64,000 nt of DNA from Longimicrobiales bacterium (GCA_965197725.1 CBDANQ010000054.1:38823-102822), one strand, 5' to 3'; counted from the stretch's first letter, positions 18,470 through 34,956 are shown. The notes: generated by a model from the sequence alone, not told the origin. Numbers and translations are program-made.

Positions 18470-19184
18470 ATGATGCTGCCCGACCCTCGACGCCCGTCAC
18501 CGAAGACCGGAACTCATGGATGCTCCGAGTCTCGCACCCGCGCAACGAGCCGGCGCCCTACGGGCGCTCGCTCGCGTGAACGCGCTGTCGGGCGTGGCTC
18601 ACAGAATCTGGGCCGAGATCCATGGATTGCACAGCGCCGGAGCTCCTCGGACGATCCGCGTTCTGGACATCGCCTGCGGCGGTGGGGACGTCGTGGTCTC
18701 GCTCGCCCGCCGGGCGGCTCGCGCCGGTCTCGACCTCGAGGTGCACGGCTGCGACGTGAGCCCGGCGGCCCTGGAAGTCGCACGGGAGAACTCTGAGCGT
18801 GCCGGTGTCCGAGCGTACTTCTTCGAGCTGGATGCGCTGCAAGGAGGGATCCCCGACCCCTACGATGTCGTGTGCTCGTCGCTCTTTCTCCACCATCTGG
18901 ACGAGCACGAGGCTGTCTCCCTGCTCGTGACGATGGCCGAGGGCACACCTCGCACCCTCTTGGTTCAGGACCTACGGCGAACCGTAGCGGGATATCTTCT
19001 CGCCTTCGGCGTGCTCAGGCTGATAACACGGTCGGAGGTGGCCCACACGGACGGACCCCGCTCGGTGGAGGGGGCCTTCACGATGGAGGAGGCGCGCGAT
19101 CTCGCGCGCAGTGCAGGACTCGACGGCGCGCGTGTCGAGGCGTGCTGGCCCCAGCGCTTCCAGCTGACGTGGCGACGCGCGTGA
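18470..19184 (+). CDS. SAM-dependent methyltransferase of type III PKS cluster (frameshift near 18485)
   Basis: ELMD, VLDIACGGGD, SLFLHHL, DGPRSVEGAFT. Intact ORF from 18516; upstream ATG 18470 joins with one C removed. Confidence 0.88.
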
Positions 19185-20348
19185 GCACGATCGAGGCTTC
19201 GACCGACGTCATGTATGGCGCCGTGTACGACGCCGTCGTGGTAGGCGCCGGTCCCGCGGGCACGATGACAGCCCTCGAGCTCGCCCGGTGTGATCTCTCG
19301 GTGCTGGTCGTCGAACGTCAGCCGATGCCGCGCTGGAAAGTTTGCGGTGCCTGTTTGAGCCCGGGCACCCTGGAGCTACTCGGTGCGGCGGGCCTCCCCC
19401 ACCCATTGGACGGCGTACCGCTCTGCCGCCTTCGCCTCGCCGCGTGGTCCACGGAGGCGTGTGTGCCGTTGAGCGGCTCGATGGCCGTATCGAGGCGCTC
19501 CTTCGACCAGATGCTGTTGAGCGCCGCCCGGAACGCGGGTGTCGTGGCGATGACACCGGCCCGGGCCCGCCTCGGGCCGATCGACGGCGGCACGCGCGTC
19601 GTCCGTATAGAGCGGGCGGAGGGCGATCTAGAAGTCGCAGCGCGGGTGGTCATCGATGCAGGTGGACTCGGTGGCGGGTTAGCTGCTGTCACTTGGGGCG
19701 GCGCCGACAGGCTCAGGCACGGCTCACGCATCGGTGTTGGTGCGGTGTTCGCACCGGGCACCGCGGCGTACGCACGCGGCGAGATTCACATGGTCGTGGG
19801 TGAAGGCGGATACGTAGGCCTGGTCCGGGTCGCGGACGGCAGCCTGACCGTCGCAGCCGCCCTGGATCCCTCATGGCTGAGGGGGCATGCCTCACCCGGT
19901 GATGCGGTCGGGGCGCTGCTGCGCACCGCCGGGCTCTGCCGCGTTGCCGGAGCGTCCGTCGGTGGGATGGAAAGGCACACGTGCGCTCACGAGATCTCCC
20001 CCCACGCGGGGCGCGGAGCGCGTCTTCGCGGTAGGCGACGCCGCCGGCTACGTGGAGCCGTTCACCGGAGAGGGTATCTCCTGGGCACTCGCGGGAGCCC
20101 GCGCGCTTGCGCCACTGGTCGCGCGAGCCGCCCGGGGGTGGGATCCCGCTCTGCTCGAGGCGTGGGATCGAGCCCACTCGCGGTCGATGACGCGGGCGCA
20201 GAGGCTCTGCCGCGCGGTTGCGTGGACGTCCCGTCGGCCGCGGCTCGTGATGTTCACGCTGCGCCTCCTGGCACGTCTGCCGGGAGTGGCGGGTCCGTTT
20301 GTACACCGCGCCGGCGCGGCGCCCAACGTCCGCCTGTCGGTGTCATGA
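19181..20348 (+). CDS. FAD-dependent oxidoreductase, geranylgeranyl reductase-like (frameshift near 19965)
   Basis: VVGAGPAG, PRWKVCGACL in the first frame. VGDAAGYVEPFTGEGISWAL in the second frame. GTGA and ATGA overlaps with neighbours. Confidence 0.85.
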
Positions 20349-21439
20349 GCCTGCTGCTTACCGGGTTCGGCACTTCGGTGCCCGAGCACGCGATCGCGCA
20401 GGCGGACGCTGCCGAGCTCGGCGCCCGCTTCGCCGCGCTGGACCCGAAGCGCGCGGCGACGGTCCGAGCGCTCTACCGGAAGGCCGGCGTGCGCAAGCGT
20501 CACAGCGTGCTGCTCGAGAGAGCCGAAGGCGCGCTGATGGACCGACAGTCGTTCTACGAGGAGGCTGTCAGCAGGGACGACCCCGGCCCGTCCACCGAGC
20601 TCCGGATGAGGCGCTACGAGGCCGACGCGCCCGCGCTCGCGGAGGTCGCCGCACGCGCGGCGCTTCGGGATGCCGCACTCGACGCGGGGGAGCTCACCCA
20701 CGTCGTGACGGTCTCGTGCACGGGCTTCTTCTCTCCGGGGCTCGACGCGGTGCTCGTCGACCGGCTGGGGCTCTCCCCTGGCGTCGAACGCACGCACATC
20801 GGCTTCATGGGGTGCCACGGCGCTCTCAACGGGCTGCGTGTGGCGTCGTCGTTCGCGGGCGCGAACCCGGACGCCCGGGTGCTCGTAGCAGCGGTGGAGC
20901 TGTGCACGCTGCACTTCGCCTACGGTCGGGACCCCCAACTCGTGGTGGCCAACGCGCTCTTCTCCGACGGTGCCGCCGCGGTGGTGGGCGTCTCCGACAG
21001 CGGCGACGACACGGGCGCGTGGCGGGTGCTCGCAAGCGGCACGCTACTCATACCCGATTCCACGGACGCGATGTCGTGGCGCATCGGCGACCACGGATTC
21101 CGCATGACGCTTTCGGCCACTGTACCCGACCTCATCGGAGCATACCTGTCGGGGTGGCTCGAGCAGTGGCTCGGTCAGCGTGGACTCGGCTTCGACGACG
21201 TGGCATCTTGGGCCGTGCACCCAGGGGGGCCGCGCATTCTGAGCGCGGTGGGCGACGCCCTCGGGCTGACGAACGGCGCGTTGGAGGTCTCACGCGACGT
21301 GCTCGCCGAATACGGCAACATGTCCTCGGCCACCGTGCTCTTCATCCTCGACGAGTTGCGTCGGCGCGATGCCCCGCGTCCGTGCGTGGCGCTGGCCTTC
21401 GGGCCGGGCCTCGTGGTCGAAGCGGTTCTGTTCGGCTGA
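20345..21439 (+). CDS. Type III polyketide synthase
   Basis: Intact triad GFMGCHG (Cys), AVHPGGP (His), YGNMSSA (Asn). Also VELCTLHF, LAFGPG. Confidence 0.95.
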   Translation: MSLLLTGFGTSVPEHAIAQADAAELGARFAALDPKRAATVRALYRKAGVRKRHSVLLERAEGALMDRQSFYEEAVSRDDPGPSTELRMRRYEADAPALAEVAARAALRDAALDAGELTHVVTVSCTGFFSPGLDAVLVDRLGLSPGVERTHIGFMGCHGALNGLRVASSFAGANPDARVLVAAVELCTLHFAYGRDPQLVVANALFSDGAAAVVGVSDSGDDTGAWRVLASGTLLIPDSTDAMSWRIGDHGFRMTLSATVPDLIGAYLSGWLEQWLGQRGLGFDDVASWAVHPGGPRILSAVGDALGLTNGALEVSRDVLAEYGNMSSATVLFILDELRRRDAPRPCVALAFGPGLVVEAVLFG

Positions 21440-25720: not shown

Positions 25721-26173
25721 GTGGCAGAACCGCGAATCGAGGACTGGCCCGACCCGCCTGCCATGGACGTGGGCTCACCAGAGCCTGCGGTGTACGAAAA
25801 CCGTGGGACCGCTTGGGTCGCGTATCGATGCCACAACGCGGACTTCCCTGGAGTGGGATCGGGCGCCAGCCCCAATCATCCTGGCTTCGACGAGTACTGC
25901 GCGGTCCTGAGGTTCACGGGAGTCGAGTCGCTGACGCTCGGGCCCCCAGGAGACGAGCGACTCCACGAGCATCCGCTCCACGATGCCGGCCTGCAGCCGC
26001 ACTCGTTCCACGTCGTCGAAGACTCGGACGAGGCGACCGCGGGCGAGACGGCGCACTGGCTCGTGACGTTCCACGACGAAACGCTCGAGGTCATCTCCGA
26101 GGACGCGGACGTACTCGAGCCGAGAGTCGACGTGAACTCGCCTGAGCAGGCGCTCTCCCAGGTAGGTAGGTAG
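25721..26173 (+). CDS. Hypothetical protein
   Basis: 150-aa ORF with protein-like composition and motifs GPPGDERLHEHPL and VTFHDETLE. Confidence 0.65.
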   Translation: MAEPRIEDWPDPPAMDVGSPEPAVYENRGTAWVAYRCHNADFPGVGSGASPNHPGFDEYCAVLRFTGVESLTLGPPGDERLHEHPLHDAGLQPHSFHVVEDSDEATAGETAHWLVTFHDETLEVISEDADVLEPRVDVNSPEQALSQVGR

Positions 26174-26245: not shown

Positions 26246-27037
26246 ATGACTGGCAGCGTCGAAGCGCAAGCGGGACTCGAAGGGGTGCTCAAGGACGAAA
26301 TCATCCGCATGTACCAGGACGTCGCGGACAATCCAGAGGGCGAGTTCCACTTCTTCCACGGGCGCCAGGCCGCGGAGATGTTCGCGTACGACGCGCGCTG
26401 GCTCGACGAAGCGCCCGAGGGTGCCGTCGCATCCTTTGCTGGCGTCGGCAATCCCCACTTACGTAGCGACGTGCAGCCCGGGGAGACCGTGCTCGACCTG
26501 GGTAGCGGCGCGGGACTCGACGCGATCATCGCCGCGCGTAGCACGGGCCCCACCGGCAAGGTCATCGGCGTCGATCTCAATCCGTCGATGTGCTTGAAGG
26601 CACAGGCCCACGCTGCCGCAACCGGCTCGGAGATGGAGTGCCATGAAGGCCGGATGGAGAGCATCCCGCTGACGGAGGAGTCTGTCGACGTGGTTATCTC
26701 CAACGGCGTCATCAATCTGTCCTTCCAGAAGCGGAAAGTGGTCGAAGAGATGTTTCGCGTCCTCAGGCCGGGCGGGCGGATCTCGATCGCCGACATCGTG
26801 AGCGCGAAGCAGCTGTCCCAGTCGATCGTGAACGACCCCAAGTTGTGGGCGGCCTGAATCGGAGGTGCTCTCCTGGAAGGGGAGATGTTCAGGCTGCTCG
26901 AAGAGTGCGGGTTCCAGCGCGTTCGTGCGGCGGTGGTACCGAACTTTCGGTTCCGCAAGATCGCGACGCAGAACTCGGCGGAGGCGTACGGGGTCAAGGC
27001 AGTGATGATGACCGCGGAGAAGCCCCGCGGCGACTGA
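26246..27037 (+). CDS. ArsM-like SAM methyltransferase, predicted selenoprotein (UGA at 26855-26857), 263 aa
   Basis: VLDLGSGAGLD, VISNGVINL, VLRPGGR. Reads WAA-TGA-IGGAL where ArsM has WxxCxxGAL, then 59 more sense codons to TGA at 27035-27037. Confidence 0.88.
26852..26894 (+). promoter_or_regulatory. Bacterial SECIS-like stem-loop
   Basis: Upper stem CTCTCCT/AGGGGAG with GGA loop 17 nt after the UGA. Lower stem GCCTGAA/TTCAGGC includes the UGA. Confidence 0.72.
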
Positions 27038-27068
27038 GGTGGAGTCACGCCACATTGGAAGGAACCGA

Positions 27069-27431
27069 ATGAGAGTAATCGCTCAAACCACTCGGCCCCC
27101 AAACCCCGCGGATCCCTCGAACTTCGTGCTGCCGGCCCGGATGCAGCCCATAGTGGGCCCGGACGACGATCTTCCGGTACGGCTCTACCGGGTCACGTTC
27201 GACGAAGGCGCGCGAACCCACTGGCACACGCACGACGACGTTCAGCTACTCTTCGGCCTGAGCGGTCGGTGCGTGGTCGTCAACCGTGACGGGGAGGAGC
27301 TGTTCCTCGACCCCGGAGACGTCGTCGCAATCGATCCCGGCGACGAGCACTGGCACGGCGCCGCCCCGGGCACCAGTGGTGAGCACCTCGCCATCAACGT
27401 GGGTCAGGTAACGACCTGGCTGGGCCTCTAG
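27069..27431 (+). CDS. Cupin domain protein
   Basis: VTFDEGARTHWHTH and GDEHWHGA motifs. Confidence 0.88.
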   Translation: MRVIAQTTRPPNPADPSNFVLPARMQPIVGPDDDLPVRLYRVTFDEGARTHWHTHDDVQLLFGLSGRCVVVNRDGEELFLDPGDVVAIDPGDEHWHGAAPGTSGEHLAINVGQVTTWLGL

Positions 27432-32176: not shown

Positions 32177-34432
32177 CTAAAGTCGTGCCCGGCGCAGCCG
32201 CAAACTGTTCCCGACGACGCTGACCGAACTGAACGCCATCGCGAATGCCGCCAGAATCGGGTGGAGGGCTCGTAGCATCATCGGCAGGAACGCCAGCGAG
32301 TAGAGTGCCCCCGCCGCTACCGGGATCAGGATCACGTTGTAGAAGAACGCCCAAAACAGATTCTGTTCGATCGTACGCATCGTAGCCCGGCTCAGCGCGA
32401 AAGCGACCGGCACGGCGCTCAGGTCTCCTCGCATGAGGGTGACGTCCGCAGTTTCCATCGCGACGTCCGTGCCCGTCCCGATCGCGATTCCCACGTCGGC
32501 CTGCGCGAGCGCCGGCGCGTCATTGATTCCGTCACCGACCATCGCCACCACGGCGTCTTCCTGCAGCTCCCTGATCGCCCCGACTTTGTGCTCCGGAAGG
32601 AGCTCGGCGCGCACGTCGATGATTCCGACCTCTTCGGCGATGGCTCGGGCCGTCGCCTCCCGGTCTCCGGTCAGCATCACCACACGGAGGCCGGCGTCCT
32701 GGAGCTCGCGCACCGCGTCCCTCGAGCCCTCTTTGAGGGAGTCGGCGACCGCGATCAGGCCGAGCACGCTCTCCTCCGTGGCGACCCAGAGTGGCGTCTG
32801 CGCGTGGGACTCGATGCGCGCCGCCGCGTCGGCCAAGGAGGCCGTCTCGACTCCGTTCTCCTCCAGGAAGGATCGGGTCCCCACCAGAATACCAGCGCCA
32901 TCGACCGACGCCGTCACCCCTCGGCCCGCCAGCGCCTCGAACCGCTCAGGCTCCGAGGGCGTCAGATCCCGACGCCTCGCCTCGACGAGGACGGCCTCCG
33001 CCAGGGGGTGTTCGCTTCTCAGCTCCGCGGAGGCGGCAAGGCGCAATAGCCTCGCATGGTCGCCGTCGAGGGCACGGACCTCGCGCACGACCGGCTCGCC
33101 ACGGGTGATGGTGCCGGTCTTGTCGAGCACGACGACACTCACCTGCTTCGCGCGCTCGAGCGCCTCCGAACTCCGAAACAGGATGCCCAGTCGGGCGCCG
33201 CGCCCCGTCCCGACCATCACCGCTGTCGGGGTGGCGAGCCCGAGCGCACAGGGGCACGCGATCACGAGCACCGCCACGAGGCGGATCAAGGCATCCGTAA
33301 CGCCGGCTCCCACTAGCAACCACCACACCAAGAAGGTGGTTGACGCTAGCGCGATGACCACGGGCACGAAGATGCCCGCAACCTGATCCGCGAGTCTCTG
33401 GATTGGCGCCTTGCTACCCTGAGCCTCGCGCACCAGGCGGATCACTTGGGCGAGCGCGGTCTCGGCCCCGACCTTCGTCGCGCGGAAGCGAAACGACCCC
33501 GAACGGTTCATGGTCGCCCCGATCACCTCGTCCCCCTGCTCCTTGTCGACGGGCATGCTCTCTCCGGTGAGCATGCTCTCATCCACCGACGACCGCCCGT
33601 CGAGCAGCACGCCGTCCACTGGTACCCGCTCTCCGGGCCGGACCACCACGATGTCGCCTACGTCGACCTGGTCCAGCGGGATCTCCCGCTCTTCGTCGCC
33701 CCGGACGACGCGTGCCGTGTCGGGCCGAAGACTCATTAGCTCTCGTATCGCCTCGCTCGTCTCTCCCTTCGCGCGAACCTCGAGCAGCTTGCCGAGCTTG
33801 ATGAGCGTAATGATCAGTGCGGCGGTCTCGAAGTAGACGTGCTCGCCGAAGCCAACGCTTCCGACGCTGAGCGCGAATGCCACAAGAACGGAGTAGGCGA
33901 ACGCGACGGACGAGCCCAGGGCGACCAGCACGTCCATGTTCGCCGATCCGTTGCGCAGCGATTTCCAGCTTCCGACGTAATAGTCCCAGCCCACGTAGAA
34001 CTGCACCGGCGCCGCGAGGGCGAACATGAGCCAATTCACCCACGTCGCATGCGCCCAGGCACCGAGCCACGAGAAGTCTCGGGCCATGCTGAGTGCGAAG
34101 AGGGGGCCAGCAAACAGAACTCCGGTCCAAAACATGCGTGTCTGCTTGCCCAGTTCGGCGCGCCGGACCTCGGCCTCCGCGTCGTCGAGATCCGGCTCAT
34201 CAGCCTGAACCACGCCGTAGCCGGCGCGCTCGACGGCTGCCGCCAGCTCGTCCACACCGAGCGTGGACGAGTCGACGTGCACGGTTGCCCGCTCGGTCGC
34301 GTAGTTGACCGCTACCTCCGTCACCCCTTCGGCCTTTCGCAGCGCACGCTCTACGGTCGCCGCACAGTTCGCGCAGGTCATGCCCGTGATGGGCAGGACA
34401 AACTCACGCTCCTTCAGGGCTTCAGGCGTCAT
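32177..34432 (-). CDS. copA: Copper-exporting P1B-type ATPase
   Basis: [31 protein letters not shown] and MAFSS. Confidence 0.96.
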
Positions 34433-34444
34433 CGTGCGGCCGAC

Positions 34445-34654
34445 TCAGGCGACTGGACGGTAGTTGATCTCTGTCATCAGAGCCTCGATCACGACCCAGT
34501 CCGTCGTCTCCGGGTCCCACGTGATCGTCACGTTTCGCGAGGTCTGCTCCGCCTTCACCGCGGAGACGCCATCCATCTCCGAGACCTCGCGCTCGATGGT
34601 CGCCACGCAGTGCCCACAGCTGATGTTGGGCACGTTCACGGTCTTGCTGGTCAT
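34445..34654 (-). CDS. copZ: Copper chaperone (HMA domain)
   Basis: ISCGHC motif, located between csoR and copA. Confidence 0.9.
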   Translation of the reverse strand: MTSKTVNVPNISCGHCVATIEREVSEMDGVSAVKAEQTSRNVTITWDPETTDWVVIEALMTEINYRPVA

Positions 34655-34677
34655 TCTTCTCTCCTCAGCGGGTCGGT

Positions 34678-34956
34678 TCACGCCTTCCCGGTCGCCTCGA
34701 ACACCTGAATCAACTCACCGAGTACCTGCTCCTTTTCCGCGTCGTCGGTACCCTGGATCGCCCTCGTCACGCAGTGATGGAGATGCTGGTCGAGCAGGAT
34801 GCCGCTGACCTTCTTCAGGGCCCGCTGGATGGCGAGTACCTGATTCACGACATCAATGCAGTACACGCCCTCCTCGACCATGCGCTCGACGCCTCTCACG
34901 TGGCCCTCGACGCTCTTGAGCCGCCGTAGGATGTCGACCTGTCTCTCATCGCTCAT
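34678..34956 (-). CDS. csoR: Copper-sensing repressor
   Basis: RLKSVEGHVRG...YCIDV...HLHHC. Confidence 0.92.
   Translation of the reverse strand: MSDERQVDILRRLKSVEGHVRGVERMVEEGVYCIDVVNQVLAIQRALKKVSGILLDQHLHHCVTRAIQGTDDAEKEQVLGELIQVFEATGKA

Follow-up and report, generated by a model that had tools for sequence, protein, structure and literature searches.

A predicted selenocysteine methyltransferase of the ArsM fold, with an altered active site and recurrent sulfur-type neighbours in its clade

In the arsenite methyltransferase CmArsM, according to the text of PMC6138428, four cysteines are needed for As(III), and Cys174 and Cys224 for methylarsenite; the number of cysteines bound is three for As(III), two for MMA(III) and one for DMA(III), as described in PMC3877260. 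The presence of at least three of the four CmArsM-equivalent cysteines is the ArsM criterion given in PMC5552862. Selenocysteine (Sec) versions are also described: a Sec "arsenite (S-adenosyl)methyltransferase" with the motif UxxG is already catalogued (PMC13188914, citing Fomenko et al. 2007; PMC9312934; PMC2398784), a Sec "arsenite methyltransferase" is counted as 41 proteins in 39 organisms (PMC5029168), and for the NCBIfam models ArsM_AhpD_UU, ArsM_DUF2284_UU and MTase_UXPK_star, PMC13188914 cites Haft and Tolstoy 2025. TtArsM of Thermus thermophilus (TTC0109) is reported as a methyltransferase with one cysteine, for which His residues are proposed as ligands, and its description presents it as distant from ArsM and arsenic-regulated (bioRxiv 2021.07.12.452139); it has no Sec. 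In a different family, TPMT methylates hydrosulfide, polysulfides and GSS-, according to PMC13089183. Furthermore, SQR, rhodanese and persulfide dioxygenase are given as the standard sulfide catabolic set (PMC9774590).

The window analysed here is a stretch of 64,000 nucleotides from a Longimicrobiales bacterium (GCA_965197725.1 CBDANQ010000054.1:38823-102822), and the features of the methyltransferase locus are collected in Table 1. Under genetic code table 11 the methyltransferase ORF stops at a TGA after 203 codons, and the annotated database version has the same 203 residues, cut at the UGA; with TGA read as Sec, the product has 263 residues. Relatives were sorted into four clades defined in this analysis: A (Sec), which contains the window protein, B (Sec), and C and D (Cys). 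The earlier note on this DNA had described a His-rich hypothetical protein upstream on the same strand and a cupin 31 nt downstream, and both are as it said: the upstream ORF encodes 150 residues, nine of them His, and has no Pfam or NCBIfam match, and the cupin ATG at 27069 lies 31 nt past the methyltransferase stop at 27037. Its statement that no ars genes are nearby also holds, no ars marker query having matched the contig. Elsewhere in the window, judged by eye, consecutive ORFs at 18516-21439 resemble a methyltransferase, an FAD-dependent oxidoreductase, with an apparent frame shift near 19900, and a type III polyketide synthase; and a copper-type P-type ATPase, a small metal chaperone and a CsoR-like repressor occupy 32177-34956, about 5 kb from the methyltransferase.

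Table 1. Features of the methyltransferase locus, in window coordinates
Feature	Position	Strand	Basis or remark
Predicted Sec-containing ArsM-fold class I SAM methyltransferase	26246..27037	+	263 aa with UGA204 read as Sec
FHFFHGR loop, residues 34-40	26345..26365	+	His35 at CmArsM Cys44 location
GVGNP motif, residues 66-70, Val for Cys72-equivalent	26441..26455	+	alignment
Co-varying C116 (26591-93) and C132 (26639-41), clade-specific	26591..26641	+	Leu/Ile and Phe in ArsM
SNGV motif, Gly for Cys174-equivalent	26699..26710	+	alignment
In-frame UGA, very likely Sec204, at CmArsM Cys224 position	26855..26857	+	alignment
SECIS-like hairpin, 6-bp stem, GGA-containing 5-nt loop	26868..26884	+	starts 11 nt 3' of UGA
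Cupin_2 protein, adjoining, not a conserved partner	27069..27431	+	domain match, synteny counts
Hypothetical ORF, 150 aa, 9 His, adjoining, not a conserved partner	25721..26173	+	synteny counts

Codon 204 is TGA in all 80 of the closest genome loci and in 168 of 168 covered clade A loci; the clade A set comprises 175 de-duplicated loci (seven uncovered at this codon), drawn from 250 loci with a match. In the 80 genome loci, conservation is 0.88 before the UGA and 0.88 past it. Four codons in the SECIS-like hairpin show 99% fixation; the background reaches at most 84% at 4/6-fold and 95% at 2-fold sites. Each of the six stem pairs is retained in 160-165 of 165 clade A loci and, for clade B, in 23-24 of 24. 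One pair has undergone a compensatory change between the two clades, from C-G to G-C, and the same positions are mostly unpaired in the Cys clades (2-6 of 18 loci pair). The folding energy of the hairpin is not significant (z -1.5 to +0.25), and the SECIS evidence is therefore taken from conservation. SelA, SelB and SelD all score above their cut-offs in the genome, which also has a tRNA-Sec; its selD (L261, G000:C45:24135-25061) itself contains an in-frame TGA. That the UGA is a genuine stop with a truncated 203-residue product would agree with the database entries of that length and with a hairpin that is not unusually stable, but it is scarcely credible beside equal conservation on both sides of the codon, a stop that is invariably TGA, fixed and compensating hairpin codons, Cys at this site in the sister clades, the complete Sec machinery, and a C-terminal part that the structural model predicts to be required for the fold. 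Considering the UGA, the hairpin, the post-UGA conservation and the Sec machinery together, insertion of Sec204 is very likely and strongly inferred.

The AlphaFold2 model of the 263-residue protein has a mean pLDDT of 93.7 and, as the earlier note had proposed to examine, a predicted ArsM fold: its best structural match is CmArsM (Z 26.4, rmsd 2.4, 227 residues aligned), the closest solved folds are all ArsM, and the first non-ArsM structure follows at Z 22.3. The protein is thus assigned to the class I SAM methyltransferases with ArsM fold, and shows 41% identity to H. salinarum ArsM over 188 residues. GVGNP and SNGVINL (152-158) align with GCGNP and SNCV of H. salinarum ArsM and CrArsM, SNGV is also aligned to SNCV of CmArsM, and Sec204 to the last ArsM cysteine, so that Val67, Gly154 and Sec204 are the equivalents of Cys72, Cys174 and Cys224. 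In the model, the structural alignments begin at residue 33/36 against CmArsM 39/44, which places the FHF loop in the Cys44 region. According to alignment and model, then, three of the four ArsM cysteine sites are replaced (by the FHF loop, GVGNP and SNGV) and one canonical ligand is kept, as predicted Sec.

Both substitutions that the earlier note had read from the single sequence are borne out across the clade, AGVGNP being found in 171 of 175 loci (three uncovered) and SNGV in 169 (six incompletely covered). His35 is invariant in a 16-sequence family alignment and His38 is kept in 170 of the 175 clade A loci. The note's further statement, that only the ligand at the Sec position remains, stands for the canonical sites, of which one in four is left, but not for thiols in general: 165 of 175 loci have C116 together with C132, four read LF, one IF and one RF, and the two cysteines are usually absent together. 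C221 is variable. By homology, C116 and C132 take the place of Leu and Phe close to the SAM-binding strands, perhaps with a structural role; they are absent from the sister clades.

In a homologue search, 7786 of 8000 scored candidates matched at E<=1e-30, canonical ArsM included. The best matches are nearly all of 202-204 residues, ending at the UGA, and look-alike clusters of 195-204 residues come from Chloroflexota, Actinomycetota, Acidobacteriota and Thermodesulfobacteriota, with few members carrying taxa. Sampled by phylum, in three sets, the genomes with a match to the family profile numbered 32 of 201, 16 of 201 and 3 of 301; close relatives are mostly titled Gemmatimonadota, and clade D includes haloarchaeal plasmid genes. 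The motifs Y..A..P...FHF..GR, FAG[VT]G and [ST]NG are common to clades A-D. In the phylogeny against ArsM that the earlier note had called for, built with the three diagnostic columns masked, clade A is separate. FastTree (172 sequences) gives 0.99 for clade A and 0.968 for a group of all 38 SNC sequences plus three NG exceptions; IQ-TREE (48-sequence subset) gives UFBoot 100 for clade A and 89 for the 16 SNC sequences of that subset. The window protein falls outside the split that holds H. salinarum ArsM with all 16 SNC sequences in this unrooted tree. Rooting with distant methyltransferases gave weak support, so we make no claim on evolutionary direction.

The best profile match of the window protein is the canonical ArsM model NF008823/PRK11873, at 208.1 bits and below its cut-off of 263, which two canonical controls pass (L082 with 308 bits and L111 with 370 bits). 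Of the cysteines equivalent to C44, C72, C174 and C224, it has one, as Sec. By both the cysteine criterion and the PRK11873 cut-off it is therefore not to be filed as canonical ArsM. JGI calls some homologues arsenite methyltransferase. Compared with canonical ArsM/AS3MT (CmArsM, PDB 6cx6/4fr0, and H. salinarum ArsM), it has a like fold, the SAM motifs and the last metalloid-ligand position, and differs in three replaced cysteine sites, the FHF loop, the profile score, its separate clade and the lack of ars operon context. On these sequence grounds, the window protein is a member of a large family separate from canonical ArsM.

The earlier note had also raised the possibility of a new selenium-dependent methylation system; as to the Sec form itself it had been anticipated. 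The catalogued Sec "arsenite methyltransferase", compared by motif and description (reference WP_011987699.1), shares with the window protein the UxxG motif, here UIGG, with Sec at the last ArsM cysteine, and is named in the accessible text of those sources without discussion of the substrate or of the missing cysteines. The NCBIfam Sec-fusion models match from position 13-14, covering the N-terminal helix of the window protein's family, but they describe multi-Sec fusions, whereas the window protein has a single domain that ends at residue 263 and scores far under their cut-offs (204 against 510 for ArsM_AhpD_UU, 186 against 575 for ArsM_DUF2284_UU, 180 against 460 for MTase_UXPK_star). In sister clade B, ArsM_AhpD_UU (230 bits) exceeds PRK11873 (212 bits). 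No characterisation of clade A or of its substrate was found in the literature searched, including the accessible text of PMC7539508 and PMC12608789; the primary selenoprotein papers (Fomenko 2007, Haft and Gwadz 2023, Haft and Tolstoy 2025) and a further review may discuss the missing cysteines, and the supplementary tables of PMC5029168 and PMC13188914 may list members. What is new here is the change at the active site, together with the sulfur-type surroundings.

The main proposal of the earlier note, a selenium-dependent system formed with the cupin and the His-rich ORF, does not survive the neighbourhood comparison, in which the GVGNP/SNGV clade shows no conserved cupin linkage. The window cupin, a Cupin_2 protein (best NCBIfam family 89 against a cut-off of 140), is beside none of the 80 closest genome loci, 75 of them with at least 600 nt downstream; among the 175 clade A loci it adjoins three, the window and two genomes of the same genus, and the His-rich ORF adjoins two. 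The same strand, the 31-nt gap and a promoter and terminator scan that found no site would fit one unit of the three genes, but such a unit is very improbable: the cupin occurs in 16 of 61 related genomes, nine of 12 cupin loci fetched lack the methyltransferase, and two congeners (G003, 99% complete, and G004, 84%) have the cupin and DUF1232 without it. The pairing with the cupin is genus-level synteny, not partnership. The spacer before the cupin varies among congeners (31, 57 and 132 nt), and similarity to the congeners that lack the enzyme starts at 27039-27058; the arrangement would fit a methyltransferase gene inserted in front of a cupin-DUF1232 block that was there before it.

Another cupin does recur. 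It is ChrR-like, with what looks by eye like a signal peptide (L136:950-1453, L149:977-1450, L152:3211-3696 and related loci); it adjoins the methyltransferase itself in 17 of 175 clade A loci, seven of 18 Cys-clade loci have it close by, and it could be taken in favour of a cupin unit. It belongs, however, to another family than the window cupin, and its ten copies in the 61 related genomes include none in this genome. The His-rich ORF, aminopeptidase P, DUF1232, DUF481 and YchF were considered as partners and recur in none of the 80 loci. A single conserved clade A operon was likewise looked for and rejected, the commonest neighbour family being a kinase (15 of 80 loci).

Arsenic markers were compared between the 175 clade A loci (991 kb of flank) and 15 canonical arsM control loci (flanks of about 1.5 kb), with queries that came from the control loci, which favours the controls: a small ArsR was found at two of 175 clade A against nine of 15 canonical loci, Acr3 at none against three, and the ars-associated phosphoesterase at none against five. 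This genome has two canonical ArsM paralogues, one with 308 bits on PRK11873 and the other with all motif cysteines. At L082 (G000:C20:36974-40522), the canonical arsM follows a MarR-type regulator in place of ArsR; this regulator carries one CC inside the chain and another at the C-terminus, and is possibly an arsenic-sensing MarR; at L083 (G000:C8:14578-17859), a 385-residue canonical-type ArsM has arsinothricin-type ArsM as its best NCBIfam match (356 bits against a cut-off of 500).

Most clade A genes stand alone, and 150 of the 175 loci, the window's own included, have no sulfur gene within 1.5 kb. In the other 25, sulfur-handling genes (ArsR-rhodanese, SQR-like, DsrE, rhodanese-MBL) lie within that distance, and among the 91 loci with full flanks they do so in 16; the 25 loci form ten clusters at 90% identity and seven at 85%. 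Many of these neighbours are on the same strand, 6-55 nt away. Three arrangements recur: ArsR-rhodanese, DsrE and SQR-like; ArsR-rhodanese, an MBL-fold protein and MFS; and a divergent LysR, an optional cupin, the methyltransferase, a rhodanese-MBL fusion and MFS. The LysR of the third has a selenium-metabolism-associated family as its best match (207 against a cut-off of 250). These labels are at domain level, with no named sulfur-enzyme cut-off passed: SQR_III scores 214-229 against 525, and the MBL-fold neighbours match GloB best, below its cut-off. Beside the 15 canonical arsM loci, ArsR-rhodanese, SQR-like, DsrE and MBL genes were found at none, the rhodanese-MBL query having been confined to clade A. 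Ten ArsR-rhodanese and eight SQR-like genes occur in about 239 Mb of sequence from 61 related genomes, from which about 0.02 of each would be expected within 1.5 kb of 175 loci (hand arithmetic), and eight and six, respectively, were observed; this enrichment is overstated, because the loci are related, the thresholds differ (stricter for the background), the background is the window's order, and detoxification genes cluster in islands. In this genome, SQR-like and MBL genes are on other contigs, and in G040 a canonical arsM has an ArsR-rhodanese gene about 10 kb away.

The sister clades show related neighbours. In clade B, a divergent ArsR-rhodanese adjoins the methyltransferase in three wider loci (L273-L275), and in the Cys clades the neighbours are an ECF sigma factor with a zinc anti-sigma (14 of 18 loci), OsmC-like and DsrE genes. 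Among 22 representatives scanned, of 150 representatives listed, the fusion partners include TusA (2), cysteine desulfurase-like (1), DsbA-like (2), DUF2652 (4) and MerC (1). Of the representatives P0124 and P0204, one joins CMD, a canonical ArsM and a single-ligand-type domain, and the other a cysteine desulfurase-like domain and the methyltransferase. In four wide loci (L279, L285, L267, L272), tandem single-ligand paralogues, Sec plus Cys or of two Cys clades, surround the ECF sigma and zinc anti-sigma genes, and in two of them OsmC-like or DsrE genes lie between the paralogues. Furthermore, a second, unnamed class I methyltransferase family (L044:2354-2971 and related loci) is within 1.5 kb of 15 of the 175 clade A genes, several times 14-24 nt downstream; a check of this neighbour for thiol/TPMT-type identity established none.

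The predicted ArsM fold, the one retained ligand and the conserved His/aromatic loop that replaces the other sites are evident from alignment and model. As to function, we tentatively favour, at a little less than even confidence, a stand-alone SAM-dependent selenoenzyme that would methylate a divalent chalcogen (sulfane sulfur/persulfide, sulfide, selenide or a small thiol) held on one selenol. As(III) needs three ligands and methylarsenite two, therefore a single ligand fits DMA(III) or a divalent chalcogen, and the chalcogen is preferred because the neighbours are sulfur-type. A persulfide donor, for example a rhodanese, TusA, DsrE or glutathione persulfide, would hand an S (or Se/Te) atom to the Sec204 selenolate; the resulting enzyme-Se-S(-) would sit beside SAM, comparable to ArsM holding arsenic on its cysteines, the terminal chalcogen atom would attack the methyl group of SAM, and a cellular thiol would free methanethiol or methylselenol. 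One soft-nucleophile ligand would suffice, Sec in clade A and Cys in the sister clades, and the enzyme would detoxify reactive sulfur or selenium in parallel to the SQR-rhodanese-dioxygenase route, with the window cupin uninvolved.

What speaks for chalcogen methylation is the absence of Acr3 beside clade A in a genome that already has two canonical ArsM, the sulfur genes of the 25 loci in seven to ten lineages with the TusA and cysteine desulfurase-like fusions, and three relatives (G026, G035 and G042; 77, 91 and 96% complete) in which clade A gives the only ArsM-like match at E<=1e-25. TPMT gives a precedent, its substrates as described in PMC13089183 (hydrosulfide, persulfides, selenium anions) being like those proposed here; as a different enzyme, with no TPMT among the Pfam or PDB matches of the window protein, it indicates that such chemistry can occur, but not that it employs Sec. 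Against this stand the many loci without a sulfur gene, the window among them, and signs of metals and arsenic: an ArsP-like permease, a probable ArsC (by eye, with no Pfam match at threshold) and Acr3 are immediate neighbours at clade B locus L287, Cys-clade members are fused to MerC or HMA domains, and MerT is near one clade A locus. L287 and the MerC or HMA fusions would also suit a one-ligand organometalloid methyltransferase, in which Sec alone binds dimethylarsenite (or an Sb, Bi or Te analogue) and adds the last methyl, so completing the work of canonical ArsM or protecting against environmental methylarsenicals. The closest solved folds, the single cysteine that binds DMA(III) (PMC3877260) and the arsenite methyltransferase name of the similar NCBIfam Sec-fusion families also point that way. 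Eight of the 11 clade A genomes among the 61 have a further ArsM-like match, which also counts in its favour, but these matches, not each confirmed as canonical, are common also in genomes without clade A, and the three genomes with clade A alone, the absence of Acr3 and the ars phosphoesterase from clade A loci and the sulfur-type recurrent neighbours make this main rival rather unlikely.

An ordinary arsenite methyltransferase with a rebuilt site, where Sec204 and His35/His38 (or C116/C132) bind As(III), would follow what is proposed for TtArsM, which works with one cysteine and two His according to its description (bioRxiv 2021.07.12.452139), and would account for the near-constant His35 and His38 and for the JGI name. 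We judge it quite unlikely, since AS3MT without its Cys174-equivalent loses both steps, as described in PMC3877260, ars operon context is lacking, two canonical paralogues are present in the same genome, and C116/C132 are absent from the sister clades and, judged by homology, close to where SAM binds in the fold. The single-cysteine TtArsM does mean that loss of cysteines by itself does not exclude arsenic; the earlier note's proposal of another substrate or mechanism is thus upheld as far as the protein is not a canonical ArsM by score, cysteines, clade or neighbours and its substrate probably differs; the proposal goes too far if arsenic is taken to be excluded. Sec is a strong nucleophile, and by homology it is positioned next to the SAM site, so that Sec itself might be the methyl acceptor, as a methyl-Sec relay or sink, or the enzyme, with no chalcogen intermediate bound, might methylate thiols on proteins or small molecules during thiol stress, a setting that the ECF sigma, zinc anti-sigma and OsmC-like neighbours of the Cys clades would match. 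No conserved downstream methyl acceptor was found among the neighbours, however, and methyl-Sec would for that reason be a dead end; we regard this alternative too as unlikely.

If chalcogen methylation extends to the whole family, its single-selenol and single-thiol methyltransferases would form a bacterial route that methylates reactive sulfur and selenium via an enzyme-bound seleno-persulfide fed by rhodanese, TusA or DsrE, and sediment and soil bacteria would release methanethiol, DMS or methylselenide from a source so far unrecognised; the family may also be the stock from which multi-cysteine ArsM arose, and many metagenome arsM genes would not act on arsenite. We hold this wider view to be doubtful. 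Clade A lacks the ligands that arsenite and methylarsenite methylation require in the characterised enzymes, which bears on the Sec ArsM-like proteins named by homology, and enzymes that do not act on arsenic may be among the arsM genes counted by automatic name. Both Sec and Cys forms occur in nature, with culturable haloarchaeal and Chelatococcus members, which makes the question directly testable. If sulfur or selenium is what is methylated, Sec would serve as a substrate carrier in a methyltransferase, and the family would be a candidate pathway for volatile sulfur and selenium cycling.
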